In this document: in pieces, positions 21,569-48,996 of the stretch
Numbering within the stretch: the stretch's first letter is position 1
How the letters are laid out: each line of letters opens with the position of its first letter
From: Amphiscolops sp. MND2022
Lineage: Eukaryota
Reading direction: 5' to 3'
Length of the DNA stretch: 64,000 nt
Assembly: GCA_964187785.1 (NCBI GenBank)
Contig: OZ076409.1
Location: 47,060,001 to 47,124,000, forward strand
Position numbers and translations under genes: made by a program
Notes under the pieces: model-generated
Told to the model about the DNA's origin: nothing
Database searches by the model: none
Seen by the model: only the letters and a program-made list of their open reading frames with translations

Positions 21569-23479
21569 TGTGTTGACCGTGATTAGGGAGCAAATCACTT
21601 GGTTCAACTAGTCTATATCTATACTCCGCGTTTTCTGCATCCTCGTCGTCGGGACCACGACGCACGTTGTTAGGCGGTCTTTCTGTCAGCGTATCGATTT
21701 TAGAAGTCAGGTTTTCTATCATCTTCAGAATCTCGCGCTGTCCGACTTCCGCGTCTTTGATTCTTTTACTTACAGATTTTTCTATCTTTTCAGATAATTC
21801 CGTAAAATCCTTATCGGACAAACTAGCAGCGTTTTCAGTTCTCATGCTAGAAGATTCAGGTTCGTCTAAAGAGTTCACAGGGGAATCCCTTCTGGCTTTT
21901 CTTTTGGAGCTACGTTCTGGCATCTTACTTAGGCTTGATAATTCTCGATTTTCTTTTTTAAGGAAATAAGAGCAAGTTCTCAAGTGACAAAGTGTGACGT
22001 TTCAAGATTTTTAATTATCGTTAAACGAAAGATAATTGTTTCGCAAAATAACAAAATTCAACTAAACATGGCTTCTAGCTCGCATTGTATTTATACTTTC
22101 CATCCCGGAAATCGGGGAAAAGACACGAACATACTTCACATTTTGTTCAGTCCGGCGTCCGTCCGAGGCAGGGAAACAGGAAGTTCAGTTCCGCTTTGTC
22201 GAACTCAGGCCTTCAGCTTGTTCATGCTTTCCGAAGAAAGCACGCGCCCACTTCCGGCCTGAGTTGCGACTCCGCTTCCCTTCGCCTCCGATCTCTCGCC
22301 TTTTCAGGACGCCGAACTGAAAAAAATTATCAAGACACGCGCAATGAGTCACTGAACAAGGTTGATTAACTGCACAAATTTGGAAAAAAATGATGACAAC
22401 CAATTTTCCTTTACAAATAATTCTCTAGATTAAATAAATCAGCAACAATTTGGATGAAATTAAACCTGAATCACACATTAAGTTTTAAATGAAAAGGGTA
22501 GAATTGTTTCTACAGTATTTACGGCTCTGATTTTTGGTTAAGATCACGAAGCCTGGCCCCAGGCCATAGTCCGGGACGGACAAATTTGTTCAATGGATAA
22601 AGCAACTATTAATTATAAACAGCATCAGATACATTGTTCAGAAAGGTATTTAATGCAATTAAACGGCAACAGATTCAGGGGACAGGATATAAATGTTATT
22701 AACACTTGGTTTGATATTCAGTACTAAATCTTTGGTCCAGGCTGCGGTTCAGGCCTGTTTATAGATTAATCAAAATTTACATGTAAAAGAACGTTGTATG
22801 TGATATTTTGAATGACGATATAGTTTAAGATCATAAATAATAATCTCTTGATTCATTTCGAGACAAAATTACATGATAGCATCATCATCTTTCACTTTCG
22901 TGATTGATTTATCGTATGTAATTCTCAGGCCGCATCCCAGGACATGGTACGTGATATTCTATTAAGTTAGCACAGAAATCTCAATCGTTGGTATATTTGC
23001 ACTTGTATTGTTAATAAAACACTGCACTAGACATTAGTTCATTTACATGTATTCACTATAACGCGCGCTTGCATATTAGTTCACTGAGTTTATAATTCTC
23101 AGGCTGCCTGCCAGGCCGCCGCTTCAGTGCGAGTATTTGAGGCCGGCTGCCAGGCCTCAGTTCCGCCTTCGATTTCTCAGTTCGTTCACTGAGCGGTGCA
23201 ATTCGATTATTATTATTACATAGTATTGTATTATTATTAACTGCACAAATAGCTCCGTTATTCCGTAAGTACGTATTTATATAAGTGTACATTATTATGA
23301 TAATAATACTAATATGCATATATTTATTAATTTAACTTCAAATTTATATTGTTTAACTCCTTTGTTTCTGATTGTTTGTCCGCTGTCTATTTCCTCTTCT
23401 TTTGTTCTTTTCCCAATTTATTCTTCGAAGAGTGGGTTGTGTTTGTTGCAATACTCGCAGCTCAGGCGGGGCTGTGACA
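21569..23479 (-). repeat. 3' LTR (1911 bp)
   Basis: Direct repeat of 35260-37169; about 28 substitutions and one indel counted by eye (~98.5% identity). Confidence 0.97.
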
Positions 23480-24002
23480 GTCCTCGGCTTCTGTACCCAG
23501 TTCCCTCAGGAAGAAGAAATTGGGAAATCGATCGAATCGGGGTCTCAAATAGCGTTGGGAGATCGTCAGTTAAGGAATTGTAGGATCGCCAAGATGAGTC
23601 TGTCTCCCAATCACTTCCCGAATAGTAGCCTTCTGAGCTACTGTAGAAACTTATCGGGCTATCAACGTTGTAGTCGGGATCATCGTAAATTTCACGGTCG
23701 AATTGCCTGACCGGACTCACAAATGTGTCTTCGGGGATCACTGGGTTGTCTTGCGTGAAACGTCTGATGACTCCCGTCTCGCTTTCTGTGTTCGTAGTAT
23801 CAGCCGGCGCTTCTTCGTGTACTAGGACTACGTGGTAGTCCTGTGTTTTAATGATTTCATAAGTAATGTTAATTTGCCGCGTGGTAATTAGGTTATAATC
23901 TGGTGGCGGTGTACCGGGTCTTTGTTCGGGCTGCTGCTGTTGATCTCGTTCGAGAATGAAGACGTCTTCGTCCATTTTGCTGCTTGAATTTGGATGATTC
24001 AT
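23418..24002 (-). CDS. ORF3, 194-aa acidic protein of unknown function; spans PPT and ends inside 3' LTR
   Basis: Intact ORF with ACAACAATG start context and TATATAA ~125 nt upstream. The last ~20 codons (LSQPRLSCEYCNKH...) lie in the LTR. Confidence 0.7.
   Translation of the reverse strand: MNHPNSSSKMDEDVFILERDQQQQPEQRPGTPPPDYNLITTRQINITYEIIKTQDYHVVLVHEEAPADTTNTESETGVIRRFTQDNPVIPEDTFVSPVRQFDREIYDDPDYNVDSPISFYSSSEGYYSGSDWETDSSWRSYNSLTDDLPTLFETPIRSISQFLLPEGTGYRSRGLSQPRLSCEYCNKHNPLFEE
23480..23507 (-). other. Atypical polypurine tract
   Basis: GAGGGAACTGGGTACAGAAGCCGAGGAC directly abuts the 3' LTR TG; purine-rich but interrupted by pyrimidines. Confidence 0.5.
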
Positions 24003-24125
24003 TGTTGTAGTAAACTAAGCGTCAGTCAATTTTTAGTACAACTGATTTGCTTCGCTTGGAAAATTTGTTCACACGGTTTGTGTCAACTCCATGAATTGTT
24101 CAGCTGGCAGACTGAACAACTCTCC

Positions 24126-24221: not shown

Positions 24222-27200
24222 ATGAGTTCAACTGAAGCTGAAAATGTTGTCTTGAGTCAAAGTCGGGCCGTCGGATTGAAGGAGAGCGAGGCCGAGGTCG
24301 AGTCTGTGGTAGAGTCTGTCGTGCAAGGTGAGCGGACAGTGGTTGCTTCTGACGAGGTAGAAAGTGGAGAGGCTGGGGATGCAGCTAATGATGAGCCCGT
24401 GGGTCCTGGATTTGGAGAGAAAGGCAGTTCGAGTGAGGACGGTGAAAGCTGCGCTGAGACGGAATCGTAACATTCAGCAACGAGTGACGGTCGTCATGAT
24501 CTCAACTACCTAGCGGACAAGAAAGGTAAGCTTTCTAGAAATTAAATGGTGGCCAGCCTTTCTAGGGTGTGTTGAACGCGTTCTTTTACTTCTACTTTCA
24601 CAGTGACTGATGATGAGCTTGACGAAGATTATGCCCCCAGTTTGTCTACGAGGTCGCAGAGCAAGAAGAAATCACGGTCCAGTCGGGTGCTTTCAACGAG
24701 TAGTGCAAAGCCTTCTAAGCGTGTGCGTTTGGCTGACGTGATTTCTGGAGCGATTCCCAAGCCTCCTATGATGGGCGACAGTTCTGGGGGAGATTTTGAA
24801 TCCGCGACAATTTCTGCATCCAAAACACTTGAAAGTAGGTAATCTTTCTCTTTCTTGTTTCTATGAAGTTTTCTTTGGGTTTTCATTTGTGGTTGTAGGG
24901 TCTACATTCCACTTCTGTATACTTCATATTCGCTTTTGTTGTAGTTGCCGATCCTTATCCTGGTTTGGGGGATTGCTCCGATCCGGAAAGTGATGTGTTT
25001 GCTGTTGAGGCTACAGTTGGGACGCCGGCCCCAGAAAGTGACGCGATGTCGGTGTTGCCTGAAGGTCTTTCTCGTCAGACACGGACACAGCACAATCGTC
25101 CAGCTGTGGGGCTCGAGCCTTCAGTGGTCCATAATGAGTGGGAGAAAGGTACAGTTTTAAGGTTTCTGTTGTACAGTGTTGCTCATTGTAGTTATGTCGT
25201 AGGTTCGTTGTATTCCGTTATGTAGTGTGTCTTGATTTGGTGAATGGTGTTGTTAACGTGTATTGTGATGTTTTAGTTGGTCTAAAGTCTGTTCCTCCGG
25301 GTTCCCCCATGGTGATGACGGCAGCTCAATGCGTCATTCTTGCACGGAGTGCGGCCCGGGCAGAGCGCCGTGAAACGTTAAAGGAGACCAAAACCTTGGC
25401 GAAGCGTAAGTAGTAGTGTGTCTTGTTGATTGTTTTTCCTGTCATCTGACTTCTATTATTTCTGGCTGTATTTTGTATTGTATTGCTTTGTTTATTACTG
25501 GCCGACTCTGTCTGTATTCTTCTGTTCTGCTTGTATTCTGGTTGTTGTAAAGGTGAGTGATGTTTAGAATTTGAAGAGTTATCACAGTTACTGAAGTCGA
25601 GGGGCATCGATGCAGAGGACCCTGGTCGGGTCATGGATCCATTGGAGGCCAAAAAGGAAAAATTGCTGGCACGAGATGAGGAGCGCGCCAAGAAGCAGTC
25701 CGAGCGACATGTATTGACCAAAGCCATGAGCAATCACCCAATCCCGAAGTTGTTTGTGAGTCGGAGGAGCGACAAAGGGCCGAACGGTTTCAATTGTGCG
25801 ATCTGTCAAAAGGACGTGTCCTTTTTATCACGTGGGCCACGGGGTATCTGGAGACACTTTAAGTGTAAAGGACACTATGCCAAGGATCGCCGTTATCGCT
25901 ACGATCATGAGGAGATGATCTTTACCGAGAAATTTGATGCCATTACCGTTGCCGAATTGACGGTGGAACAGCGTGCTGAAATTGAGCAGACTCCGCCTGT
26001 GGTGTCGGGCAAGATGAACAAGTTTTTGGAGGACGAAGTTGACGCGCTGGTCGGTGTTCCATCCAACGTGCCTCCGACTACCCTTGTAGGCTGCCTGTTC
26101 GAATTGCTGCGGAGTGGTGGGTCACAGGTGTTTCTCGGTCGTCTTTGGAATCAGTTCCGAACGACCCTGCCTGTGGAAAGTCCCTATGCTTCAGTGACCT
26201 GGAGCAAGACAGAAACGTTGGTCGTCCTTGTTCAGACCCTCTATCCTCGGGTGTTACGTCGTGTAAAGTCATGGCACGGGGACGGCCCATTCAGTTTGGC
26301 GTTGCATAGTTATTACTCCGGTGTGAAGTGCATCGTCCGTTGCTGCCCCGGTGACTCTTTGCGTGAAGTGCACCTTGTGGATGAAGATCCGAGGGATGTA
26401 GCTTGTGGGGCGGAGGTACAGTGTCTGGCCCGTGCTCTGTCGCTAGTCTCTACTCGGCGGGGGCCCGCTGCTATTCTGGGTTGCTCTCCTGTGCTTTTTA
26501 ACGCCTATGTGGACTGGTGTCGCTCAGTGGGTCGGCCTTCTCCTATCGTGGCTATTTCGTTTACTGGAGATGTATTTCGTCGACTTGTAGGTGAATCTAG
26601 CTTGGCGTGTGTGGGTGCGGTCGATCCTTTTGCTACTGTAGATTACCTGGCTCACCGTCTCATGAGGATCCGCCATCAGGCGTGGTTGCTGGATCTGCCG
26701 AAACTCCGCATGTGCCTGGAAACTGGAGTCGTGCCCTTCGCTTCATTGTGTGATGTGCTGCAAGAATTGTTGGATCACTGGCCTGATGTGAAGCTCAGTT
26801 TGTCAAATGACGTTTTCATGATAAAGAAGGTTGCGAATGTTGTGGACTTAGATTCCTTGCTTTGTTCTGATCGCTTGGGTCTCCCTCGCTTGTCGCTATT
26901 ACATGTGGTGTTGCTGTGCTTTCGCGCCAACTTCAAGAGGCTCTTTGACTCTGGTGCAAAGGATTATGCCTGTAGGAACTATTCCGACTTTTGCTTCTTC
27001 TATTGGAGCCTTTTAAGTAAGGTCAAGAAGATGAGCCAGTTGCCCTCGATCGACGATTGGTCCAAGTATATGGGTAAACCTTTGAACAGTTGGGCCAACG
27101 TGTCTGTTGGTGAGTGCTTGCAAGGTGAGCCAAGTATTCTAAAGGCATTGCGGGGTTTCGAGGACACTCCCCGGCGGGCCTTCCTTCGCGAACGCCAGAG

Positions 27201-28023
27201 CTATTTGTTGGAATTGTTGAAGCATTTGGGGTCTTCTGCCTATGCCAGTTCTCGGGTCGCTCGTTCCCTTAGTTGTCTCAGCGTGGACATGCTCTTGGGT
27301 GGCGATGCTGATTATGTAGTGGAATTATTTCAAGAACTGGTTACATGTCTTCAAGAAGCTGGTTACCTTGATAATGTGGATCGCGAGTCGTCAATGAATG
27401 AGTTTAAGTCACTAGTAGTGGATCTTTGTCAGTTATCAGCAGATTCTTCGCAGATTTTTGATGTGTTTGAGTATTTGGAGTCTGTGCGTAGCTACCAGTG
27501 TCGGATACATGTGAAAGAAGTCGTTCGTTTGGTTCGTGTTGTTGTGTGTCCTGCTCTTGAGCCCATGCCTCCGGTCGATATTTCAATCAGTGGGACTCAA
27601 TTGCCTCCTTCTGTTATCCGTTCCGGTCTGTATGCAGTTCAGTCATTCGTGGTTCATCCGAAGTTTATGTCGAACGATTTGTTGACTGTGGAGTGTCTCG
27701 CTGAATTGAAAACTAACTTGCCCGTTGGACATCAATTTTTAGTGCGCAGTTCATTTGATCCTTGGGCTGGGGTCAGTCGCCATTCCAGTGAGGAGATTTT
27801 TGCAAGCCTTTTTGGCTGTTATACTGCATATTATAATGGACAAGTTGAGGAGTGGAGGATACGGACGTCAGGTCAGTCGTCTCGTCGAGGATGTTCTGGT
27901 TCCATTGTTGCTGATGGCGCCTCGTCCGCTGCTGTTGTTGAGAGAGGATCCGATGTTCCTGGGACGTCTTCTCAAAGTCAGAAAGGGAGTAAGAACAGTC
28001 AGAAGCAAGGGAAATCTTGCTGA
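24222..28023 (+). CDS. Spliced antisense gene, exons 24222-24525, 24604-24834, 24945-25148, 25277-25405, 25568-28023 (~1107 aa); BED-like zinc finger, probably hAT-transposase-derived; one premature TAA at 24468
   Basis: Four GT-AG introns (GTAAGC..CACAG, GTAGGT..TGTAG, GTACAG..TTTAG, GTAAGT..TTTAG), all phase 1, join the short ORFs 24144, 24603, 24965 and 25225 to the 796-aa ORF in one frame. Confidence 0.82.
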
Positions 28024-28356: not shown

Positions 28357-31300
28357 TTAATTTTCTGATCTCGGACTGCCGTCTGGGCCGAGGTCCGCTA
28401 AAACCTGTAATTCTGGGCCGTTGTCCAGTCCGTCGGAAGAATGTGCCAAATTTGTTGAATTGGCTGTTAGGGCATTGTAATAGGCATATTCTGGTTTCCA
28501 ATTTGACGTCGGGTTTTTTCGAAGGTTGTAATGGGATTTCCGGGGGGATTGAGGTGCGGGTGTATTATTTTCGGGTTCATCATCGATATCAATTGGTGGG
28601 TCCTGTGTCTGGTCACTTGGGTGGTTAGGAATGATTTCGGGGTCGTATACTAGGTTAGGACTTGGGGGGCCGGGGTGGGTGGGGTCATTGATTGTTTCTG
28701 GGGTTGGTTGGATCACTTCGGGTTCGGGTAATTGTTTGTTTTCGGGTTGGTTAGGGCATTCTTTGTACAGTTCTTCCCACGCCATTGCGAAGAGGTCGTC
28801 GTGCTGTATGGTTACTTCTGTATCCTGCTGGAAGTCCTTGGGTGGGACTGTAATGTCAGGCAGCTTGTGGCTGCTTGCGAAGGGGCGTAGCCTGATTCTA
28901 TGCAAGATCTGTGTGAAATTGGTCTGGAGTTTACGTATAAGATAGTTGTTGTTGGGTAGGGTTTTGACCACGATATATGGTCCCGTCCAAAGGTATTCCC
29001 GAAACGGCAATTTCGTCGCTTGGCTATGCGCCTTTGGATGCAAAGCATAGCAGTAGTCGTTTACTACCAAGGGGTGTGCTGATGCTTTCCGGTCATAATA
29101 ACGCTTATGTCGGACGTAGGCTTGCATCAGGGCTTGTTGGCTCTGGTTGAGGATTTCTTGTGTTTGTTGTAACACTCTCTCAGCTATTTCGTGGTTGGTT
29201 GGGGCAGTGGCCTGGGGTTTAAGGCCGTACTTTAGGTCGAGTACGTTGTATGGCACTCTTCCATGGAAAACTCGGCTGGGTTCGCAGCCTAATGATGTGT
29301 GGTAGGAAGTGTTGTAATTTAATACTGCCATTGGTAAGACTTGGTGCCACATCGTTCGCCTCTCTCCCGTCATGATTTTTAGGCTTGCTTTGAGCGAGAC
29401 GTGGGTCCTTTCTAGGATGCCTATCGTCTGTGCATGTTTGGTGGTGGCATGTTTCAGTTGGATTCCGAGAATGGCTGTTGTTTGTTGCATTGCCTCCGAT
29501 ATGAACATGGATCCTTTGTCCGTGATTATCGTTGTGGGGGAATAGCAGTGTCTTGTGATGATATCTGTAAGGACCCGTGTGACAGTCTTGGTGTCGATTC
29601 TGGCGACGCTATACGCAAATAGATAACGGGAGAATACATCCATCGCTGTGCTGACTGCAGTGTATCCTCCTGAAGGGTCGTCGAAAGGGACGATGTCCAT
29701 TTGTAGTGCGTCTTCTGGGCCCATCGCTATTTTGGACATGTCGATGAGCGGGGGTGTAATGTTGGCATTTGGTATCCTTTTCGTCTGAGCGCATTCTGGG
29801 CATTGTGCAATATGGGTGGCTATTCGGGCGGCTAGCCCCGGGAAGTAGTACTTTTCGCGGCATTGCTGGATGGTTTTAGCTATACCTGGGTGTTTCCCGA
29901 ATTTGCCATGGTGGTGTTGTATGAATTCGTCAACTAGTTGCTGGGGGAGTAGTACTTGCAAGTACTTGACTTTCCCTGTATCGCCAAAATATTGTCGATA
30001 CAGGAGTCCATCTTTTATGATGATGCGGTCATCTTGTGTGAGGTATTTGGCCGCTCTGGGATCGTCGTTCAGAAGTTGGGTGTCGTACGGTTCTTTTAGG
30101 ATTTTCAGTTTGAGGTTTCTGAGGACGGGGTCCTGGTCTTGGTACGGTCTCAGACTGCGCGGGAAGATTGTGTCACTGTGGATTTGGCGCCGCTGTTCTT
30201 GCTCTGGGTCTTGGATGTTGTTGCAGACCAAGGGTAGGTTCTCGGGTTGGGAGATGGTTTGGGCGGTTTCACTCTTGGGGTCGGAGTTCTGTTCATGGGG
30301 TGTGTAGATCTGTTTCCTGGCTTGTTGTTTACGCTCCCAAATGTCTTCTTCGGTCTCAGTGTCGTCCTCTGGTAAAAAATAGAATTGATCTTCTTCATGG
30401 ATGTCGGAGGATTGTATGTTTACCTGGATCGGTGTCGTTTGAATGTCTTCTCTGATTTGGAGAAGGACTTTTTCTTTGGGGCTAATGTCTAATCGGGAGA
30501 GGAAATCGGCTGCTGTATTCATCCTTCCCGGCACATGGGCGATTTTAAAGTGAAATTGCAGTACAAAATCGCAGGCATTCCAGAGGGAGGGTGGTATCAT
30601 CTTGGTTTGGAAAAACCTGGTGACTGATTTATTGTCGGTTAAGACAATAGTCGGTTTGGATGAACCCCACAAGATGTGACTATATTCCATAAAAGCGAAA
30701 TAGATGGCTAAGAATTCTTTGGCATAGATTGACATCTTCAACTGGGATGGTGAAAAAGTTTTAGAGCCAAATGCCACTGGAGCGTAAGTCTTCCTGGTGG
30801 AGGTGATCTTTTGCTCCGGGTCTTCTTCCGTCATCAAGGCATATCCGGCATTCCTGAAGCTTGCGTCTGTCATTAGTACGTACTGCCGGTTTGGCAGTGG
30901 CTGTTTGAGCCAAAGGCCGCATGCGTTGTCTAACGATTTGTTGATAGCTTCGAAATTGGATATGAGTTCCTGATCTATCTTGACTGGCATGTCTGATTTG
31001 ATGAGTTCATGAAATGGGGCAATCTTCTCTGATAATCGGGGAATGTAGTTTCTGTAGTAATTTACGAAGCTGATGTATCTTTGAAGTCCCTTCTTCGTCC
31101 GGGGGAATTTGATGGTCTGAAGGTGTTTCTGGATCTTGTGGCTTTGGGGTGCCACCCCTGCTGGGGAAATTGTTCGCCCAAGGAATTCGACTTCCTTGGC
31201 GCCGAACTGACATTTGGCCATGGAGAGCCGGAGTCCTGCTGCGCGGATGCAGTGGAAAACTTCTCTCAAGTTGTTCTTTAACTTCTCGGGAGTGTTGGTG

Positions 31301-33453
31301 GCGATTCCAATGTCATCCACGTACTGAGCGCATTTGTCCGCCTTTATGGCCTTGTCGAGGTATTCCCTCATGAAACTTGAAAAGGACGACAATGAGCGGC
31401 TCACGCTATGGGCTAGCCTGAGGTACGCGAATGTCCTGCTGGCGAAGTTGAATGCTAGAAGTTGAACGGACTTTTGGTCTGCCATTTGCAGCACGTGGTA
31501 GGCTTGTGAACAATCAAGCTTGCAAAACAACTTCTTGCCGGCGAGGTGTTGCGCCGCGTCTGTCAGTGTGCTCACTGGATGATTGTTGTTAATGTAATCA
31601 TCAGATATCAGATTGTTGATTTTTCGGAGGTCGACTAGTAGGCGCAGGCGGCCGTTTGGCTTCCGTTGGGCGAAAATGGGGCTGGCATACTTGCTGAACG
31701 GGAGCGTGGTTATAATCCCGAAGTAATGCATTAGGCCCAATTCGACCGTCAGATCTTCTTTCAGGTTAATGGGGCAGGGCAAACTCTGTGAGTAGACGGG
31801 GTCGTCTGTTTTCGGTGTGAGTTTGATTTTGAAATCATGGTTGATTCCAATGTCTAGTCGGTGTCTTGCAAAGATATCGTTGAACTCTATGAGTATTTCT
31901 TCGATGTCTTTCTTGTCATCTTCTGAGAGTTGTGAATCGTCCCATTTGAAGCTTTGGAGGAATGTTTTTAGTTCCTCTTCGCTGTTGTTTGGGTCGAGTT
32001 TCTGGATTTCTTCCAGTTCTTTGATTTCTCGGAGAATTCGGTTCTGAATCGGGGTGTGTGTAGCGGGGTCTCCGGGGTGGTCTGGTGTGGGAAACCAAAA
32101 GTTTTGATTGTGAGATGGTTTTTCTGAGGTTTTCAGGAGCTCGTTGATGTACACCATCGCTTCTTCGGAGTCGTCTTCGGCGAGCACTTTGAGTGCTGCT
32201 GTGTTGAGTGGTTTGAGTTCTTTTGCCTCTTCAGGGGACAGGATTTTGAATTCTGCTATTGTTGTGTTTCGTTTGATGGTATAGGGTGTAGGGGTGGTAT
32301 TTGTTACTCTGATGTCAATTTTTCGGTTTGAGGCTGTTGAGATTGAACTGGCTACCACGAGGGGGTCGCCACTGCAGTGGTTGGTGGCTGGGTTGATGAC
32401 ACCGGTTGTGTCGACGTTGGATGGGATATCTGTGGAGCCTGTTATTGTTTGTGTCGTTTCAGGGGGAATAGTGAGTGGATTCTTTATTTGTACTTTGTAC
32501 AGTTTCCTGTTACGGGTATATTCGTCGGTTTCGATTGAATATGTGAGGTGGGGGAAGTGTAGCAGGCCCTGGCTCACGTCCAGGATGGCGCTGTTATTTT
32601 TAAGGAACGTGAGGCCAAGTATTGGGCCTGTCAGTCGTTTGGCCACGATAAATGTTTCCTTAAAATTCCAGTCTCCGATTTCGAATTGGAGGTTGATTGT
32701 TTTGGTGGGTGTTTCAATGTCGTTATTTGCGACTTGGAGTTTGAACGGAGGCGGTTCCAACTCTTTAACTATGTCTTTGGGGGACATTTGGAGGATTTTA
32801 TTGTAATCGGTTTCGGAGATGCAGTTTACAAGGGCGCCAGAGTCAATAAGGGCGTCCAGGGTCAAGTCCTGGAAGTCCATGGGGGCGAAGAGCATTTTCT
32901 TCTTCTTTTTGAGGGATACTGCTGAAAAGATTGGTATGCACTCTTCTTTTGTTATGGGGTCTCTCGTGAGGTATTCCGCAATCTGGGCCAGGGGGTAGGA
33001 CTGGGGTTCGTCCTGGGATGGTGTGTCATTTGCAACACCGGTGGGGGATCCAGATTGTGTATTAGTTGTGGCAGGGTTGAGGGGTCGAGGGTCCTCGACT
33101 TCGTTTCCGGTCTGCCTACTGGAGAGAGAGGTGTGAACGTTGATTTCTCTGACTGGACTTTTGTTGTTCCTCTGATATTCTGCAGTCTGCTCAGGGAGGT
33201 AGGACTTGGGAACGTCCTGTTGCGGTGTGCCGTTTGCAGCACCTGATGGGAATTCAGACTGCATGTTGGTTGCGTCAGCTATGATGTGTCGATCGGTGTC
33301 GATTTCATCTTCTAGCTGACTATTGAGGATAGTGGGTGAGAGCTGTGTCTCGTATTGAACGGAGGGTTCTAGGAGAAGAGATCTCTTTATTCGTTTGGTT
33401 TTTGGTTTGGAGAAGTTTGTCTCCGAATTGGGTGTAGGTGAGGTCAGGTCCAC
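28357..33453 (-). CDS. pol: Gypsy Pol: aspartic protease, dUTPase-like remnant, RT, RNase H, integrase
   Basis: ALIDSGA; LRLLVDLR; KLDCSQAY; YVDD; LMTDAS...KEFLAI...TDNK...ADFLSR; H-H..CPEC; D(QMDI)-D(ITDKG)-E(ILER); GPY module. Confidence 0.97.
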   Translation of the reverse strand: MDLTSPTPNSETNFSKPKTKRIKRSLLLEPSVQYETQLSPTILNSQLEDEIDTDRHIIADATNMQSEFPSGAANGTPQQDVPKSYLPEQTAEYQRNNKSPVREINVHTSLSSRQTGNEVEDPRPLNPATTNTQSGSPTGVANDTPSQDEPQSYPLAQIAEYLTRDPITKEECIPIFSAVSLKKKKKMLFAPMDFQDLTLDALIDSGALVNCISETDYNKILQMSPKDIVKELEPPPFKLQVANNDIETPTKTINLQFEIGDWNFKETFIVAKRLTGPILGLTFLKNNSAILDVSQGLLHFPHLTYSIETDEYTRNRKLYKVQIKNPLTIPPETTQTITGSTDIPSNVDTTGVINPATNHCSGDPLVVASSISTASNRKIDIRVTNTTPTPYTIKRNTTIAEFKILSPEEAKELKPLNTAALKVLAEDDSEEAMVYINELLKTSEKPSHNQNFWFPTPDHPGDPATHTPIQNRILREIKELEEIQKLDPNNSEEELKTFLQSFKWDDSQLSEDDKKDIEEILIEFNDIFARHRLDIGINHDFKIKLTPKTDDPVYSQSLPCPINLKEDLTVELGLMHYFGIITTLPFSKYASPIFAQRKPNGRLRLLVDLRKINNLISDDYINNNHPVSTLTDAAQHLAGKKLFCKLDCSQAYHVLQMADQKSVQLLAFNFASRTFAYLRLAHSVSRSLSSFSSFMREYLDKAIKADKCAQYVDDIGIATNTPEKLKNNLREVFHCIRAAGLRLSMAKCQFGAKEVEFLGRTISPAGVAPQSHKIQKHLQTIKFPRTKKGLQRYISFVNYYRNYIPRLSEKIAPFHELIKSDMPVKIDQELISNFEAINKSLDNACGLWLKQPLPNRQYVLMTDASFRNAGYALMTEEDPEQKITSTRKTYAPVAFGSKTFSPSQLKMSIYAKEFLAIYFAFMEYSHILWGSSKPTIVLTDNKSVTRFFQTKMIPPSLWNACDFVLQFHFKIAHVPGRMNTAADFLSRLDISPKEKVLLQIREDIQTTPIQVNIQSSDIHEEDQFYFLPEDDTETEEDIWERKQQARKQIYTPHEQNSDPKSETAQTISQPENLPLVCNNIQDPEQEQRRQIHSDTIFPRSLRPYQDQDPVLRNLKLKILKEPYDTQLLNDDPRAAKYLTQDDRIIIKDGLLYRQYFGDTGKVKYLQVLLPQQLVDEFIQHHHGKFGKHPGIAKTIQQCREKYYFPGLAARIATHIAQCPECAQTKRIPNANITPPLIDMSKIAMGPEDALQMDIVPFDDPSGGYTAVSTAMDVFSRYLFAYSVARIDTKTVTRVLTDIITRHCYSPTTIITDKGSMFISEAMQQTTAILGIQLKHATTKHAQTIGILERTHVSLKASLKIMTGERRTMWHQVLPMAVLNYNTSYHTSLGCEPSRVFHGRVPYNVLDLKYGLKPQATAPTNHEIAERVLQQTQEILNQSQQALMQAYVRHKRYYDRKASAHPLVVNDYCYALHPKAHSQATKLPFREYLWTGPYIVVKTLPNNNYLIRKLQTNFTQILHRIRLRPFASSHKLPDITVPPKDFQQDTEVTIQHDDLFAMAWEELYKECPNQPENKQLPEPEVIQPTPETINDPTHPGPPSPNLVYDPEIIPNHPSDQTQDPPIDIDDEPENNTPAPQSPRKSHYNLRKNPTSNWKPEYAYYNALTANSTNLAHSSDGLDNGPELQVLADLGPDGSPRSEN

Positions 33454-34124
33454 GGCTTCGATCGTGGTCCTATCGGTGAGGTTTCAAGTTGGTGGCTGTC
33501 TGGTGCCACGTCCGTTGTTGGGGATCGTATGATACCGGCTCTGATAGGGTTTCTTGGCTGATCTTTTGGTGGAGAATGGGGAGCCGTGGTATAGGATCCT
33601 TGGTTCTTGAGTATAGATTTGACGTTGTTCTGTGAGATATCAACTAGGATTTCTGTCACGTGTTCGGCATCCTGGTTGTAGTCTGGGATAGGTTGGACGG
33701 TTTTGGACCTGTGACGTGGTTCGGTGGAAATATTCATCCCTGTTTTTCTGATGTACTCTTCAAATGGCGTGCATTCCTGCTGTTTGAACGTTAGGGTTGT
33801 CTTGTCATACAGTTGAGGGTTGTAGTATGGGTCGCAGTTGAAGTCAGAGTCGTGGAAGTAGGTTTCAGGTGAAGTGCTTTCTGGTAGGGGTCGTTTAGGA
33901 GTATTGTAAGCAGTCGGGTTGTCAAGATACCACTGAGGATAGTCTTTCTTTGCAGTGTTTTGGCGATTATATTTATTGAGCTTGTGAATCTGCCATCTTC
34001 GCTGCCAGTCGAGAGATGGTTCTTCATGTCGCTCGGTGTTCCTTTCGTGGTCATAGGAATTTGGGGGTTCAGATGTTGTGTACTGTCGGGTTTCGACGGT
34101 GTCCCCAAATCGAAGATGTGGCAT
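33444..34124 (-). CDS. Pol N-terminal extension (in the -1 frame of gag; separated from the rest of pol by a probable 1-nt deletion)
   Basis: Directly follows the slippery site; its frame overlaps the pol frame at ~33444-33485. Confidence 0.7.
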   Translation of the reverse strand: MPHLRFGDTVETRQYTTSEPPNSYDHERNTERHEEPSLDWQRRWQIHKLNKYNRQNTAKKDYPQWYLDNPTAYNTPKRPLPESTSPETYFHDSDFNCDPYYNPQLYDKTTLTFKQQECTPFEEYIRKTGMNISTEPRHRSKTVQPIPDYNQDAEHVTEILVDISQNNVKSILKNQGSYTTAPHSPPKDQPRNPIRAGIIRSPTTDVAPDSHQLETSPIGPRSKPWT

Positions 34125-34136
34125 ATTTAGTTTTTT
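34085..34136 (-). other. Putative -1 programmed ribosomal frameshift signal
   Basis: TCA AAA AAC TAA gives the heptamer A-AAA-AAC just before the gag stop; downstream TTCGA...TCGAA stem with a GGGG loop and nearby CCC. Confidence 0.75.
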
Positions 34137-35614
34137 GATTGGCTGAGCTCCTGGGTTTGGTTTTGAGGTTGAGTGTTCTGCGGGAGCATGGGTTGGTAGC
34201 CCGTTTGGCTATTTGTTTGGTTGTTAAATGGGTGTTGATGTACTGGTGTGTTGTCTGGGGGGTACTGACCTTGTGTATTCTGTGGCAACGGGATGTTATT
34301 CGGTGAAGTTGCTTTAGGGGTCTTCCACCATTGGGGTCTGTTTGCCCAGTTGGCGCCAGAATAACAATCCTGTGTCGTTTGGCTCTTTTTGCCGCAGGTT
34401 TCACATGGGTTTGTTATTTTAGTCGGTGCCCTATTGCCTCGGTTGCGGGCTTCCCGAGCAGTTTTCCGGCAGTTCTTTATTACATGTCCTGGGTTGCCAC
34501 ATCCGAAACACGGGCCCGCTGGTTTGGGTGGATTGGCGGTTTGTTGTGGGGCGTCTTGTACATCGATTTGGTGTACTCCTGTTATGTTTGTTTCGCTTGG
34601 GGCCAGGAGTCCGTTTAACTCCATCTCGCGTTCTAGGTGTTGGACCATCAGGTCGTATGACTCTGTCTCGAGTCTTGCCTGGTTAAGGACTCGTTTTAAG
34701 TGCGCTGGCATTTTTGCATAGAATGAGGTTTCTATGAACTTTGGGGCGTCGTCGCCATATGCCTCCTGTGCCAATTTCTGGTATTGCTCCAAGAAGTCTT
34801 GGAAGGTTTGGCGAGTCGGGTCGAATTAAAGTTGTTCCCACTTACATCTTGCGGTGGCTATGGATTGTGGGCGAACGTATCGTCTTCGGAATGTGGTAAT
34901 GATGTCGTCTAAACTGGCGCGGTTTGCGTCTGTCATATTGCGATACGTCTGTAGGGCATCGCCTCTCAGGAGGGAGTGGAAGTAGTGAATTTGCTCTTCC
35001 TCTGAGATATTTGGATATACTTTGAGGCTTGTCATAAACAGGTCCTCGAAGTGTTCGAATTTGTCGTTGCGGCCATCAAATGTGGGCATGGTTGTTGAGA
35101 GTGCCTTCGGGAGTCTGGGCAGTCCCGCGCTCTGTTGTGTGGCATTCTTCAGGGATTCGAGCAATTTGTCCACGATATCGTCTGGATATCTCATGTTGGG
35201 CGGGGGTAGACTTGATGATCGGGTGGGTATGTCCTGGGTTGTGGTAACTCCTGTCACCATGTGTTGACCGTGATTAGGGAGCAAATCACTTGGTTCAACT
35301 AGTCTATATCTATACTCCTCGTTTTCTGCATCCTCGTCGTTGGGACCACGACGCACGTTGTTAGGCGGTCTTTCTGTCAGCGTATCGATTTTAGAAGTCA
35401 GGTTTTCTATTATCTTCAGAATCTCGCGCTGTCCGACTTCCGCGTCTTTGATTCTTTTACTTACAGATTTTTCTATCTTTTCAGATAATTCCGTAAAATC
35501 CTTATCGGACAAACTAGCAGCGTTTTCAGTTCTCATGCTAGAAGATTCAGGTTCGTCTAAAGAGTTCACAGGGGAATCCCTTCTGGCTTTTCTTTTGGAG
35601 CTACGTTCTGGCAT
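34127..35614 (-). CDS. gag: Gag (starts within LTR; in-frame stop at 34826-34828)
   Basis: PTFDG..FEDLF..LLRGDAL capsid-like region; zinc knuckles CFGCGNPGHVIKNC and CETCGKKS(Q)TTQDC. ORFs 34826-35674 and 34127-34792 are in the same frame. Confidence 0.92.
35242..35259 (-). other. Primer-binding site
   Basis: TGGTGACAGGAGTTACCA immediately follows the 5' LTR ...CAACACA. Confidence 0.8.
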
Positions 35615-37169
35615 CTTACTTAGGCTTGATAATTCTCGATTTTCTTTTTTAAGGAAATTAGAGCAAGTTCTCAAGTGACAAAGTGTGACGTTTCAAGATT
35701 TTTAATTATCGTTAAACGAAAGATAATTGTTTCGCAAAATAACAAAATTCAACTAAACATGGCTTCTAGCTCGCATTGTATTTATACTTTCCATTCCGGA
35801 AATCGGGGAAAAGACACGAACATACTTCATATTTTGTTCAGTCCGGCGTCCGTCCGAGGCAGGGAAACAGGAAGTTCAGTTCTGCTTTGTCGAACTCAGG
35901 CCTTCAGCTTGTTCATGCTTTCCGAAGAAAGCACGCGCCCACTTCCGGCCTGAGTTGCGACTCCGCTTCCCTTCGCCTCTGATCTTCCGCCTTTTCAGGA
36001 CGCCGAACTGAAAAAAATTATCAAGACACGCGCAATGAGTCACTGAACAAGGTTGATTAACTGCACAAATTTGGAAAAAATGATGACAACCAATTTTCCT
36101 TTACAAATAATTCTCTAGATTAAATAAATCAGCAACAATTTGGATGAAATTAAACCTGAATCACACATTAAGTTTTAAATGAAAAGGGTAGAATTGCTTC
36201 TACAGTATTTACGGCTCTGATTTTTGGTCAAGATCACGAAGCCTGGCCCCAGGCCATAGTCCGGGACGGACAAATTTGTTCAATGGATAAAGCAACTATT
36301 AATTATAAACAGCATCAGATACATTGTTCAGAAAGGTATTTAATGTAATTAAACGGCAACAGATTCAGGGGACAGGACATACATGTTATTAACACTTGGT
36401 TTGATATTCAGTACTAAATCTTTGGTCCAGGCTGCGGTTCAGGCCTGTTTATAGATTAATCAAAATTTACATGCAAAAGAACGTTGTATGTGATATTTTA
36501 AACGACGATATAGTTTAAGATCATAAATAATATTCTCTAGATTCATTTCGAGACAAAGTTACATGATAGCATCATCATCTTTCACTTTCGTGATTGATTT
36601 ATCGTATGTAATTCTCAGGCCGCATCCCAGGCCACGGTACGTGATACTCTATTAAGTTAGCACAGAAATCTCAATCGTTGGTATATTTGCACTTGTATTG
36701 TTAATAAAACACTGCACTAGACATTAGTTCATTTACATGTATTCACTATAACGCGCGCTTGCATATTAGTTCACTGAGTTTATAATTCTCAGGCTGCCTG
36801 CCAGGCCGCCGCTTCAGTGCGAGTATTTGAGGCCGGCTGCCAGGCCTCAGTTCCGCCTTCGATTTCTCAGTTCGTTCACTGAGCGGTGCAATTCGATTAT
36901 TATTATTACATAGTTTTGTAATATTATTAACTGCACAAATAGCTCCGTTATTCCGTAAGTACGTGTTTATATAAGTGTACATTATTATGATAATAATACT
37001 AATATGCATATATTTATTAATTTAACTTCAAATTTATATTGTTTAACTCCTTTGTTTCTGATTGTTTGTCCGCTGTCTATTTCCTCTTCTTTTGTTCTTT
37101 TCCCAATTTATTCTTCGAAGACTGGGTTGTGTTTGTTGCAATACTCGCAGCTCAGGCGGGGCTGTGACA
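35260..37169 (-). repeat. 5' LTR (1910 bp)
   Basis: TGTCACAGCC...CAACACA; direct repeat of 21569-23479. Confidence 0.97.
35779..35786 (-). promoter_or_regulatory. LTR TATA box
   Basis: TATAAATA ~165 nt upstream of the gag ATG. Equivalent boxes at 22088, 8807, 11809, 37893 and 48028 in related LTRs. Confidence 0.6.
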
Positions 37170-37356: not shown

Positions 37357-39718
37357 TGTTACGACTTATATCCTGGTCGTTTTGCGTTGAGCTTATCCTA
37401 ACTGATCTAGTAGGGGTGTAGAAACTCCTAGGTTCATTTTCCATTCCCTCTTCAACATTCTCTCTAATATTCTCTCTTGTTTCAGGTTTCAAGAGTTTCA
37501 TCATTTCCTTTTGGGATTCAATTAAGAGATTCTTAATCTCGGAGGTAATTTCCTGCTTCAGAGATGCTCTCAAACTTTCAAGAAGGCTATTTTCAATTCT
37601 GGGGGATTTTGGTTTTGAAGGCCCCGCGGTACTAACGTCTTGTTCTGGAAAACAAGGATCTTCTCCTACTACTGGTGAAACGAAACCATCTATTTTCCTG
37701 TTGGATGTTCTTTCTCGTCTGACTTCGAGTTGTAGACATTTCGATGAAGAAAAGATTTTTCTGATGATTTGAATTTCTTTTCAAAGTTTTCAACAAAGTT
37801 GAGTTAGAAACGAGGTTGAGACAAACAAGTTTAAAGCAACTGATTATCACAAGAGGCAAAAGACTGAGTCCCTTAATCAACAAGTTTCACCGTATTTATA
37901 CCCTTCCAGCATCATTTGATAACAACTATAATCCCTAATTTTCTTCGAACAATTAATCATTTCCAGTTTTATCGATGAAAAAATCACGAAGTTCCCAAAT
38001 TTGTGTCGATATTTCGTCAATTTTTGAGACACGGCAAATTTAATCTAGCATTAGTCATCAAACATGATCATATGATTTCATCCCGGCGTCCTTTTGCTTC
38101 CTCCCGAGCAGGAAGTAGATATTACTTCAGTTTGTCAAACCGGAAATAATTACCTGTTTTGCTGCTTCAGTTCGCGGGAAATTGACGCTGAGATGACGCT
38201 GACGTGAACAACAAATACCTGATTTTGAAATTCGGTTTGATCAAAATGCTATGACTAATTCCAAAGCAGGATTATTTAAACGATGCTAGGACGATATTTT
38301 ATGAATTTGGACTCATTCTTTTTGTTAGGAATAGAATTAACAAACATGGTATTGAGACAATACACCAATAACAAATTTAGCATGTCGCGACAAGTGCGAC
38401 AAATTCCATAAAAGTAACAGCAACATCTGTTTGATAGCAACGGCAACATAAAGGGTTTAATGGATAGCAACAATGAACTGGTATAGAAATATGATCACAA
38501 TCATAATTATAGAATAGCGTCTGGAATCATCGAGTACAAAAATGCAAAATATACCGAAATACATCTTCTGTACAAAATACACTTTAATTGAGGCTGTAAA
38601 CTGTGACTTCTTGATTATTCTACTATGAAATCTCGTAATAAAAGTGGCTTATGCAAGAAAACTCCCTTATTGTTAAGAATACATGACGGTTAATTGACGC
38701 GAATTTGAACTATCCTATACGCGTTGATTACGCCTTAAGTCAGATCTTTAAATTGTGGAAATATTAGCAATACGCTTGTTTTACAATTTGAAATAGCCTG
38801 CAATTATCTTTCCCTAGGAAATAACGGCCTTAGTGCGATGAAAAACCTTGACTGGTGTAGTGAATTCATTCATTTTGTCCGATTTCATAAATTTGTCAAC
38901 GTCATGTCGACGTGTTTTCTTTGCAGACTTTTGAGCTTCATAAACTTGTCAACGTCATGTTGACGAGTTTTCTTGGCAGAGTAGAGATTTTGACTATTTA
39001 GACGCAATGGTGGCGAGTATTTTAGAAATGAGTCTCTCGCTAGCTGCCGGAGCAGTGACGTCACAATGGCGGTAAATTGGAATGATTTCTAGTAATGTTA
39101 TTAGTATAGGCGGAATATTGGAATGATTTTCTGGTACGCATATGCGAGGCAGTGACGTCAATTGGTATACCTTCAAGTTTGTCTGCCTCTTACTGACGGC
39201 AAATATTCAAGCATTCTTATTTTCTCCGCTGCCTTGTTTACTCAGCGTAATATTGACGTCCTAAATCACACTAATTGTCATTCAAAGCGTAGTTAAACTG
39301 CCTTTCTAAGAAAAGGCTTAAATCCTTCGACGTGCCATCTCAATGTATTTTTCATTTTAGATCTGATTTATGTTCTTTCGGGAGATGACTTTGACTACGT
39401 CTTCATTTAGATTAGGCTATGGTTTCTTTATATCGAAGCGTGTTTCAATTTAGTTTTCAGGTGGCGAATGTTATTGACTTGACCTGACAAAAACGTCTCA
39501 ACCGGAAATGTGAGAATCATTTTGGCATATTCATTCTTTGTAGCTAGTTTCATTTGAAGATTCCGTTGATCAAACGTATTTTTGTTTTTTTTAGTCACAG
39601 TTTATTTGTTACTTTTAATAGTTAAAGTAAGCTTTTGCGAACCTCGCAGTGCAGCCGTGGCCTCTCCCGAAGCCAACTTTTAAACACCCACAACCCAGTC
39701 CGGGAGCGGACTGTGACA
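37357..39718 (-). mobile_element. Gypsy solo LTR (2362 bp) with decayed gag N-terminus
   Basis: TG...CA termini; TSD ACAAG (37352-56, 39719-23); TATA at 37893; MSTTRSQTRKN (37739) and a coiled-coil fragment running to the LTR end. Confidence 0.9.
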
Positions 39719-40039: not shown

Positions 40040-40290
40040 TATAGCATACGGTAATATGCTGGACTGCTAATATACTTATGCGGCAGTATGCGGAATTACT
40101 ATGAACGCATATGCAGCAGTATACAAAACACAAATGTACTTATGCGGCAATATGCGGAATTACCGTGGACGCATCTGCTGCAGTATGCGGAAACACTATG
40201 AATGCATATGCGGCAACATACATGAATACTAATATACACATACGGCAGCATATGGAATTACTACGAATGTATATACAGCAACCTACGGGC
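40040..40290 (+). repeat. Degenerate minisatellite (~30-bp units, ATATGCGGCAGTATGCGGAATTACTATGAAC-like)
   Basis: Multiple imperfect copies visible. Confidence 0.75.
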
Positions 40291-41039: not shown

Positions 41040-42095
41040 ATTGAAAATGGACATGCTTCAATTTGATACGACGAAGATTCCCTCTGCTCACCAATATCTC
41101 CGGACGTGGTAGACATCTCAAGCAACTCTGATGGTGCCTTTGCTGTGTCACCCAGGAACATTAGGCAACTAGACGACAAATTACGGATTAATACAACAGG
41201 TAGCAACCTCATGTCAGCCTTCGTGGGTTCAATGGTGGCCTCTTTGTAGCCGGATGCAGACACAAATGTGGAATAAAGTGAGCCCGCGGGGTCTCCAGAG
41301 GCCCAACTAGAAAAAGACTTGATGGAGCTATTAGGAGAACCACAAAACAACACGATGGATTCCCCAAACTCCTTCAGCGATAGTGCGTTCGAAGAGAGAA
41401 ACTTGTTCCCATGGACTGAGAACGAGATCTCGAATATGAGAGTGAATAATCAAGATCAAAAGGAGGCGGTGAACAACTACGGCCGTCCAGTTGCTAGAGT
41501 CCCGCCTACAACAAGAGCAAACCATAGCGATGAAGGAATTCTACCAAGACCAGTTCCAACATACCCGCCTAACTACAGACCCGAAGAGACAAACTTCCTG
41601 GCTTTTCAGCCCGACATACCCATGGAACACGAGGCCCAGAATGGTATAGCGTCACAACAGCAAGTTACCCAGAACACTGCACAGGGATTATCTCTATCCC
41701 CCATGCTCTACCCTATCCGCAGTGGAGAAGAGTCACGTGGGCTACAACAATTCCAAATGCAATCACTGACGCAGGTGGGTCTCCCTTTCAACATGACTCA
41801 CAGTTCCAACCTCCTCTTGATTCCAGCTCAACAAAGACAGAGCATCAGGCTTTTGCCCACAGTGATGCCCAATGTTGCACGGCATTGTGACATTTGTGGC
41901 AAATGCTACGATCAGATAGCACTAGAGACACTGGGCGAAAATCTTGTAGCTACCGAGTACGAAGGAGAAACAGTTAAGGAAAGGGCGATTAGATCTCGTG
42001 CATTTATCCATGGCTTCGAAGCGGCGTTGTTCCTTTTCAAAAATGCGGGACTGTCGCATCCCTCGAGATGCGATGGTTCCGTAGCGCAATTGTGA
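41040..42095 (+). pseudogene. ORF3-type gene (258-aa open part 41319-42095; upstream part has stops), ends inside LTR
   Basis: Acidic/proline-rich with CDICGKC; the terminal LSHPSRCDGSVAQL* lies in the LTR; TATATA run at ~40837. Confidence 0.65.
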
Positions 42096-43587
42096 GAAAG
42101 GAACGCCTTAAGAGTTTCTGCAAAGAAACATTTTAAACTCCACTAAAACTCATTAGGATGATATTTCTTTTGACTTGTCATGTAAATTGTATGTTTGTAT
42201 TGAAGTTCCTTTTATATTGTTTTCCTAGGTTCTCTTAAAGCTGCTTGACTCATCTAGATTTCATTCATAAACGTAACATATGCAGAAAGACTTCATAGGT
42301 ATGATCAATCTGAGATTTTTTGATTTCTCGTTATTCGTAATCATGCTACAATTAGGACAACGAATAAGCGTCAATGAGCGTTTTCAAATACCAAAAAAAC
42401 GTCATTATACACAAAATGGCCTTGCGAGTATACGCCATTATACGTAAAACAGTTTCCGAGCATGCGTCATTATACGTTTTTTGAATATGCAGTAATATAC
42501 GTTTTGAAATGATCAGAATATACGGCAACATACCTTTTGTCATTTTTAATATACGCTGCCATGCATTTCTTGCAGTAACGAATATGAGTCAACATACGCT
42601 TTGCGAGATAAAGCCACAAGCTACTATACGGATTGAATCATGATGTATATACATTACGATTCTTGTGTGTAACGGCTGCTTGCCCTTATCCTGCGCTGAG
42701 GCTTGACAAGCTTTACGCCGCCCTGATCCGTTGCTTAGTACTGTGGACCGTTACTAAACAAATCCTGGTTTTCTTGTTTTAAAGGACTGTATCTTTTGGC
42801 TGGCGGGTCCGATGTGACCCGTGGAATCTCCTGCGATTCCTCTTTGCACTGATTTGGATCCGATGTGATCCTGCACACACACACTTCCCTCACTGTATCT
42901 TCACGCGCTCCGGCTCTCCAACTATGAGAGTAGCTACTTAGTCGCTCTGACTCTAGCGAAAAGTTGTGAAGATTGAGAAGTTGATTTATTAGTCTCGCGG
43001 TCCTGAGACCCAACTTGACTATAGCTATACAGTGGAGAAAATCTCTATCTAATAATGGTATACATATGGTTTACAATTCTACAGTAAATACAGAGCAAAT
43101 ATAAGTTGAAATATGTTGTATAAATAAATGACATTTAAGTGAATTATTAAAGTTATTAGCTATGTAAACAAACCATAGTGTGGGTATAGCATGTTGGTTA
43201 GGTGGGCTCTAAAGCATGTTTACACAATGTAAATATCAATCATTGCAACAGAGTTACATTCTAATGTGGTCGTAAGGATAAATAGCAATGTTTACATTTT
43301 TGTCTCAATGACCTTGAGTACTACACATGTGAGGGGTAAAGGGGGTTATAATGGGTGGATGACCTTGAAACTTGGCCGGTGTGTTTGTGTTAGGTACTTG
43401 CGTATGTGTGCCAAGTTTCATGGCTCTATGATTAATAGTCTTGGAGAAAACACATTTGGGGGGGGGGTTTAAAGATTTGTGATGATTGGATTTTCTTCAA
43501 ATTTTCATCTAAGTTTTTAAGAGTTTAAGTCTTGTTTCTCAACCAGCATGTTCCAAATCGACTTTCTCTGCTTTCTGATGACTGGCG

Positions 43588-43800
43588 CTAACATTGCCCG
43601 TCCCTTTTTTTCTCCTGAAAAACACTTTCGTAGAACATGGGTGCCAGTTTCACTACTGGTCTTTTGAGTTTTCCATCTTCCGTTTTCACCAGCGCTGACC
43701 TCACTCGCCCATCGCTTCCATGATAGACTTCCAACACTCTGCTGGTCTTGTAGTGTGCTCTTTTCACATTGTCATCTACTATCCAAACCAAATCATTGAC
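43588..43800 (-). pseudogene. BEL/Pao integrase C-terminal (DUF5641-like) remnant
   Basis: VNDLVWIVDDN..R..Y...RVLEVYHGSDGRVRSALVKT..G.LKRPVVKLAP, in frame after the stop of the 815-aa ORF. Confidence 0.85.
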
Positions 43801-46248: not shown

Positions 46249-46620
46249 TTGTTCATATGACTCTTTTGTTTCACTGAGGGCTTTCGAACTTCACAATTGT
46301 TTCTTGTAGGCTTTGTCACTTTTCCCAACTCTGCAATTTCTCAGATACAAAGTGTCAACTGCTCAATCCGGTAATCAATCGCCAATTCTTGAAGAATCAA
46401 CCCAATACTGTCGATTATACTTGCCTTCTTTGACGAACTTGATTGTTTCGGTGGATCTTGTCTCTCTGACTTGATCCCTTGGCTTTACTTGGTGGATTTA
46501 CTTGCAATGACGTCTTAGACCAGATCTTTGCTTCAATCAGGAATACGTTCCCAAAGAATACAATTCGTCTCAAAACTAGAGTTGATGCACAAATACCTCC
46601 AGAGTGCCGCTTAAGCCCAA

Positions 46621-46802
46621 CTCCCAGAGTACACAATACTCCCAACTCCCAGAGTCACAGTAGCCCAATCCCCAGAGACACAGTAACCCAATCTCCCAGA
46701 CACACAGTAGCCTAATCTCCCAGAGTCACAGTAGCACAATCTCCCAGAGTCACAATAGCCCAATCTCCCAGAGTCACAATAGCCCAATCTCCCAGAGACA
46801 CG
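46621..46802 (+). repeat. 24-bp tandem repeat, ~7.5 copies (CTCCCAGAGTCACAGTAGCCCAAT)
   Basis: Head-to-tail units with no spacers, in the BEL 5' leader. Confidence 0.9.
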
Positions 46803-48961: not shown

Positions 48962-48996
48962 GACAGCCAAGATGCTAGTAAGAGGGTCAACCCGGG
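48885..48996 (+). repeat. MITE-like repeat end (CTTGGCAAGATCTTG-rich, ends GGGTCAACCCGGG)
   Basis: Inverted homology to ~53115-53200; similar terminus GGGTTGACCCGGG at ~53633-53645. Confidence 0.5.

Follow-up and report, generated by a model that had tools for sequence, protein, structure and literature searches.

The question raised by this locus was whether the gag gene of a Ty3/gypsy retrotransposon can begin inside the LTR and be read through the LTR end and the primer-binding site (PBS). The element concerned was 15.6 kb long (37169-21569, minus strand), carried 1.9-kb LTRs and lay within the window, by which the whole analysed stretch of 64 kb is meant. We estimated at about 85% the probability that it represents a clade of long-LTR Ty3/gypsy elements whose gag begins with the 3' 310-590 nt of the LTR, together with the expression route proposed below for such elements. 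Acoel genomes are described as LTR-rich and AT-rich in the available text of PMC9911081.

The element was delimited by comparing the window with itself. The 5' LTR (M5; 35260..37169, minus strand, 1910 bp) and the 3' LTR (M3; 21569..23479, minus strand) formed a direct repeat of 98.5% identity over 1911 nt, had TG..CA termini and were bordered by a 5-bp TSD, AACAT. The pol gene (28357..34129, minus strand) showed the order PR-RT-RH-IN, as in Ty3/gypsy, with matches to RVT_1 (607-772), RNase H (841-974), H2C2 (1180-1235) and rve (1256-1348), the protease match (204-296) being below the Pfam cut-off. The integrase did not precede RT, as it would in Ty1/copia, and the closest solved relative of the RT-RH part was the Ty3 RT (E 2.3e-28, the best of 18 matches, the second having 1.3e-24). 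None of the relatives listed in an RT search and a cluster look-up carried the name of a known element. The gag gene (34127..35614, minus strand) encoded a putative capsid and two putative CCHC-type knuckles. The top matches of the capsid model were PNMA2 and dArc1 with a probability of 1.0, yet with E values of 1.8e-3 or worse (none at or below 0.001); in Pfam, DUF1759 was above the cut-off, and Retrotrans_gag and zf-CCHC were below it. The heptamer A AAA AAC (34130..34136, minus strand), located directly before the gag stop, is likely a -1 gag-pol frameshift site judging by its sequence, and its counterpart in L001, a metagenomic locus described below, was T TTA AAC. This copy of the element was decaying, as gag contained a premature stop at 34826-34828 and the pol frame was broken near 33484. 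The end of gag was separated from the protease by a long low-complexity stretch (33447-32950, minus strand) with an internal repeat (32972-33088 / 33176-33292). Elsewhere in the window, fragments resembling a non-LTR RT were seen by eye in the translation of 18855-20140 (plus strand), and 57302-59790 (plus strand) held pieces of gag and pol from a related family, in a decayed state.

The initial annotation had placed the gag ATG at 35614, within the 5' LTR, and had proposed that the frame continues through the LTR end and the PBS. This was found to be exact. The ATG lay 355 nt inside M5, and the LTR-coded N-terminus of gag (35260..35614, minus strand) consisted of 118 codons plus the first base of a Met codon. 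Across the boundary the frame read NHGQH-MVTGV over CA|TGGTGACAGG, the final A of the LTR being base 1 of the Met codon, and the junction ATG (35260-35258, minus strand) was thus formed at the LTR/PBS boundary. The PBS TGGTGACAGGAG (35248..35259, minus strand) was itself read as (M)VTG, which placed it within the gag ORF, as in the Ty1-type layout. An identical PBS was present in L001, and the TGG-starting motif was conserved in the window and in that locus. The PBS presumably resembles tRNA-Leu; no tRNA was found in the 64-kb window. When the LTR-coded gag stretch of the main element was shuffled, it remained open in 2 of 5000 cases.

The same annotation listed four other LTRs, each with a TATA box followed by an ORF running off the LTR end. 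All four were confirmed as real LTRs, three by TSDs and one as a 3' LTR, and each possessed one TATAAAWA motif ahead of its ATG; an open ORF as written was found in A and D, and frameshifts were found in B and C. The solo LTR A (7768-9511, plus strand, TSD AAAGT) contained an open ORF from 8944 of 189 codons plus 1 nt with a run-out of 35 residues. In the solo LTR B (12620-10954, minus strand, TSD GTAAC) the ORF from 11522 was interrupted by one frameshift near 11225. The ORF from 37739 in the solo LTR C (39718-37357, minus strand, TSD CTTGT) had one break near its 5' end, due to which the ATG at 37739 was out of frame with most of the ORF. LTR D (42052-48884, plus strand) carried an open ORF of 190 codons plus 1 nt from 48314; rather than a solo LTR, it was a 3' LTR that a nested element (42668-47847) divides in two.

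The nested element was non-autonomous, with 930-bp LTRs, a TSD TTGTG and a 24-nt tandem repeat. Its 829-codon ORF had no Pfam match and started ~600 nt past the LTR, which is the conventional layout, and its PBS is one that we take to be BEL/Pao-like. Short tandem repeats were present at 40069-40284, a 44-nt duplication was located inside LTR C (38884-38980), and a 92-nt inverted pair (48876-48967 / 53110-53201) began at the end of LTR D.

The LTR ORFs of M5, M3, A, D and L001 were 118-190 codons long and all reached the LTR end in one phase, which the final segments of B and C shared. The M3 copy (21923-21569) was open and continued for 6 residues into the flank; all three M5/M3 differences within the ORF were amino-acid changes, as expected for a decaying copy. 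It could be argued that a purine-rich U5 happened to stay open by chance, or that the LTR boundary was misplaced, because the LTRs were picked for having ORFs and two of the four were frameshifted. Upon shuffling of the ORF region, however, only 0-3 of 5000 sequences stayed open for each of the 7 LTRs, and the boundaries of the LTRs were fixed by the TSDs and by the match of the 5' and 3' copies.

The LTR edge was also located by means of short database proteins. Residues 1-118 of the main LTR ORF were matched by 217 of 226 short candidates. The motif of the LTR end was located in 60 of the 120 short matches listed, the other 60 being unscored owing to a different end motif or a broken copy. 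Seven of the scored proteins went on with MVTG, and 53 with other tails having a median length of 30 residues. The first tail residue was S, N, T, R, I, K or M in 53/53 cases, all encodable by an A-starting codon (a few parses, e.g. P0415 and P0425, were imperfect, and less than half of random residues qualify by a hand estimate), and thus the LTR edge was pinned exactly at the Met. Judging by their tails, the short matches lacking MVTG are solo or 3' LTRs running into the flank.

Selection on the ORF was assessed with LTRs B and D, the pair (11522-10954 and 48314-48884) that had been suggested for such a check. The two LTRs were 69% identical over the ORF and 56% identical upstream of it, where shuffles gave 47-50%. 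By the Nei-Gojobori method, dN of 0.28, dS of 1.15 and dN/dS of 0.24 (95% 0.12-0.39) were obtained over 184 codons for this single pair of dead LTRs with dS of about 1.2, and 0 of 2000 bootstrap values of dN/dS were equal to or above 1. A protein-guided alignment of 185 codons also gave 0.24, and dN/dS values of 0.98 and 0.91 were determined for the other two sense frames. The differences per codon position were 49/41/78. Neutral evolution of the LTR ORF, by which the proposal could have fallen, was not borne out, and at the level of sequence comparison purifying selection on the encoded protein was established. Based on the shuffles, the dN/dS and the run-out tails, a chance frame or a misplaced LTR boundary was refuted, its probability being negligible. 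What was established instead is a single frame that leads from the LTR ATG over the LTR end and the PBS to the capsid; every family has it in the same phase, and it is under purifying selection at the protein level.

ORFs contained in the LTR are known from MMTV sag and HIV nef, which are U3 ORFs for separate proteins. The likeness to them is the coding inside the LTR, and the difference is that here the ORF occupies the U5 end and is fused to gag. In a similar manner, the LTR ORF might be a separate accessory protein produced from the 3' or a solo LTR, the fusion to gag being incidental. Every LTR held the ORF together with a putative promoter, and the 53 run-out tails showed that it was still open in many solo or 3' copies. 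On the other hand, none of the open copies examined had a stop codon within the LTR, and the tails were unrelated flank sequence, contrary to what is expected of a sag/nef-type gene. A free-standing gene also needs no fixed end phase, whereas all scored copies shared one. A separate protein was considered very improbable for these reasons, and the ORF is better explained as the beginning of gag.

A search for homologs was restricted to proteins of 460-2000 aa, a filter that favours extended proteins. It gave 48 matches among 1639 candidates; M[VA]T[GA] preceded the capsid in 47 of the 48, and at least 85 residues stood ahead of the motif in 46. A full-length Gag relative, starting with the LTR ORF and continuing through MVTG, was found for every LTR family in the window. 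LTR A matched residues 1-181 of the 195 that precede MVTG (at 196) in P0180. P0197 was matched by LTR B over residues 1-188 and by LTR D over residues 1-189, MVTG being at 190, and LTR C matched residues 13-131 of P0045, 131 being the last residue before MVTG. Twenty-three proteins were hand-chosen for a capsid tree, and P0301 was dropped for want of the anchor motif. In the resulting tree of 22 rows, extended proteins with extensions of 93-195 residues were placed on all main branches, and the capsid identity among the extended rows went down to 27% with a median of 54%. In P0028, P0030, P0031, P0033, P0034 and P0049, tandem repeats of ~14 residues were observed with the MVTG motif in each, as if the LTR end together with the PBS had been duplicated in frame. 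Some related Pol proteins (P0085, P0091 and P0133) carried PF00692, a dUTPase family.

A DNA relative reaching into the LTR was recovered from metagenomes, where 284 candidates yielded three loci: L001, which alone reached the LTR, and L002 and L003, in which only the capsid was covered. L001 contained a 1792-nt LTR-like segment that started with TG after a purine tract and included a TATA box. The ATG lay 388 nt (129 codons + 1) before the end of this segment and was followed by the same PBS as in the main element and by an intact gag. A degenerate second copy of the LTR end and PBS was seen 42 nt downstream (4397-4445), and the LTR ahead of gag was preceded by a purine tract (2591-2606) and a 3'-type ORF, an arrangement that suggests tandem elements sharing one LTR. 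No DNA relatives were found in viral contigs (none by pattern and 0/105 candidates by protein) or in genome contigs (0/116 candidates).

A profile search returned 3710 representatives, and among the best 150 of them 93 had no scorable capsid start and 23 had no motif, while the motif was preceded by at least 85 residues in 12 and by 7-70 in 10. The remaining 12 began at the Met motif by a regular expression, 11 of them at the junction and one, P0211, being a miscall. These 11 proteins, called from the junction Met among the 150 representatives listed, are relevant to another explanation, according to which the main start of Gag is the ATG made of the last A of the LTR and the TG of the PBS. 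The upstream frame would then serve a minor longer isoform, or the leader would be removed by cis- or trans-splicing. Such a start is also favoured by the junction Met being invariant, with G at +4, in a 19-row alignment and by the ATGs in the leaders of B and D. The Met is, however, a forced by-product of CA|TGG in the gag phase; one of the three phases across the PBS meets a stop at once, and hence the junction Met is partly a by-product. Moreover, the upstream frame was under purifying selection and fused in phase across the families, and therefore at least a part of Gag must carry it. A main start at the junction was judged improbable, while a shorter Gag isoform initiated there is possible. 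Representatives that start at the junction Met or lack the motif may be decayed copies or members of families without the extension. We regard the ATG inside the LTR as the main start and infer that the LTR-coded beginning of gag is translated.

The LTR-coded part was examined as a protein domain. Its N-terminal tip was basic, as 13 of the 14 proteins checked had 4-7 K/R within residues 1-15, and in the main element residues 1-12 (35579..35614, minus strand) resembled an NLS or an RNA-binding segment by inspection. AlphaFold2 predicted a single helix at residues 37-81 of the relative P0004, flanked by disordered stretches, with 10-residue pLDDT means of 69-90 over 31-80; the predicted long helix or coiled coil corresponds to 35372..35506 (minus strand) in the main element. 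When three copies of residues 30-90 were modelled, a parallel bundle was obtained with a score of 0.59, compared with 0.00 for the best of 3 controls, the runs sharing at least 86% of contacts with a partner pLDDT of at least 73. The mark for this score was reached by 21/30 solved pairs and 0/23 single chains and was calibrated on microbial dimers, not trimers, and the pass may stem from a resemblance to solved coiled coils. According to these models, the LTR-coded domain would consist of a basic tip and a long helix that may trimerise. In the A, B, C and D LTRs the coiled coil was assigned by inspection or alignment only. The basic tip and the helix were kept better than the linker following them in near families among 19 of the 48 homologs (in P0015, for example, 62% for the helix and 13% for the linker), and in the farthest families the helix identity was about 20%. 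No Pfam family scored above the cut-off in the LTR-coded part (DNTTIP1_dimer on LTR C, E 0.002, was below it), and the ESM Atlas returned nothing above 0.80 for residues 1-125.

We proposed the following route of expression. In all 6 LTRs examined for it, exactly one TATAAAWA motif preceded the ATG, at a distance of 137-294 nt. In M5 the only such motif, TATAAATA (35779..35786, minus strand), was located 172 nt before the gag ATG. Genomic RNA would start from this LTR promoter about 100-260 nt before the gag ATG; for M5, a start site ~32 nt past the TATA box would give a 140-nt ATG-free leader (35615..35754, minus strand). The predicted leaders were free of ATGs in 4 of the 6 LTRs (M5, A, C and L001), with 1.4-2.9 ATGs expected in each, and 2 and 3 ATGs were present between the TATA box and the gag ATG in B and D, respectively. 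Ribosomes would scan to the LTR ATG and synthesize a Gag consisting of the basic tip, a self-associating coiled coil, a linker, the PBS-coded MVTG, the capsid and the knuckles, and Gag-Pol would be formed by a -1 frameshift.

The candidate poly(A) signal ATTAAA of M5 (35706-35701, minus strand) was inside the predicted leader. AATAAA or ATTAAA was found 31-92 nt before the ATG in the main element, B and L001 and was absent between the TATA box and the ATG in LTRs A, C and D. The poly(A) site probably precedes the ATG, in which case the ORF would be a coding U5 present as a single copy in the RNA, and reverse transcription would copy it into both LTRs through a strong-stop DNA of about 495-830 nt. 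Solo and 3' LTRs would retain the promoter and the ORF without a stop codon of its own. The domain is probably matrix-like, so that it would oligomerise Gag and tie it to RNA or to a cellular site, comparable to what was proposed for the N-terminus of Cer1 Gag.

Among known systems, the layout is closest to that of Ty1. Only about a dozen codons of Ty1 are located in the LTR, in contrast to about 100-195 here, which form a selected and predicted helical domain. The PBS of Ty1 of Saccharomyces cerevisiae is placed within the GAG ORF in the available text of PMC4974528, and this is the likeness; the difference is the superfamily, as Ty1 belongs to Ty1/copia (Pseudoviridae) and the order here was PR-RT-RH-IN. 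The same text describes the PBS segment of Ty3 (Metaviridae), the closest solved RT-RH, as adjoining the 5' UTR, whereas the PBS was inside gag here. The Gag of Cer1, a Ty3/gypsy element of Caenorhabditis elegans, has a large N-terminal region with a predicted long coiled coil ahead of the capsid, while most Ty3/gypsy Gags start with CA according to the Cer1 authors (PMC10309623, sections available). In the same sections, Cer1 has an LTR of 492 bp, and the label 5'UTR is given to positions 957 and 1175; the 5'UTR therefore extends past the LTR, so that the coiled-coil domain of Cer1 is coded after it. The predicted long coiled coil before CA is thus shared with Cer1, a likeness based on models, and the difference is that in Cer1 a 5'UTR reaching outside the LTR precedes gag. 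The literature searched contained no account of a long Gag domain encoded by an LTR, and older accounts of long-LTR gypsy elements may exist in Repbase Reports and most subscription journals, which were outside the search. The available portions of PMC3601003, PMC4402516 and PMC2238898 contained no precedent, 'ORF' and 'open reading frame' having 0 occurrences in that of PMC3601003. We concluded that the layout is a variant of the Ty1 type found in a gypsy clade, with about ten times the length and a predicted folded domain, and that it is real, clade-wide and selected.

The opposite end of the LTR was coding as well. A sense ORF of the main element (23418..24014, minus strand) passed through the PPT and extended 62 nt into U3 of the 3' LTR, a layout that resembles HIV nef. 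Such PPT-spanning sense ORFs were observed in three families (24014-23418, minus strand; 41277-42095, plus strand; L001 1951-2682, plus strand) and reached 44-80 nt into U3; two of the three ended with a CxxC motif. With the gag frame at the U5 end and this ORF entering U3, both LTR ends are coding. The main element also contained an antisense 820-codon ORF (25561..28023, plus strand), hAT-transposase-like as a lead only, whose ESM Atlas neighbours included hAT/FAM200/ZBED5-type proteins at 0.90-0.91. It had no Pfam match, and a single-sequence fold was uninformative (pLDDT 38). Related fragments were located at 62653-62270 and 2232-2065, and the ORF is possibly a captured DNA-transposase gene carried by the retrotransposon.

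The solo and 3' LTRs may have consequences of their own. In Ty1, p22 arises from an internally initiated transcript and represents the C-terminal half of Gag. A truncated, self-encoded Gag fragment is described in the available part of PMC7175516 as restricting Ty1 and poisoning assembly. It serves as a possible model for the run-out peptides of solo LTRs, with the difference that here an N-terminal coiled coil, still hypothetical as a product, would come from solo LTRs. We proposed, as a rather unlikely extension, that solo and 3' LTRs are working mini-genes with a promoter, a start codon, a basic tip, a trimerising coiled coil and a random flank-coded tail, the products of which would bind full-length Gag and damp assembly in proportion to the number of solo LTRs, a self-made copy-number control. 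New host proteins may also arise from such LTRs, which would supply the N-terminal module in finished form.

By a common working rule, LTRs do not code for protein and a gypsy Gag starts downstream of the PBS; the layout breaks this rule. If elements are divided into LTR and internal parts during annotation, these Gags would lose a quarter to a third of their length, and the solo LTRs would be called orphan genes; 217 short database proteins match the LTR-coded region. Codons, the integrase end and the tRNA primer site have to share a single stretch, the PPT and the U3 end are covered by a second ORF, and a long minus-strand strong-stop DNA is implied. Each solo LTR made by recombination could give rise to a dominant-negative Gag fragment or provide a new gene start.
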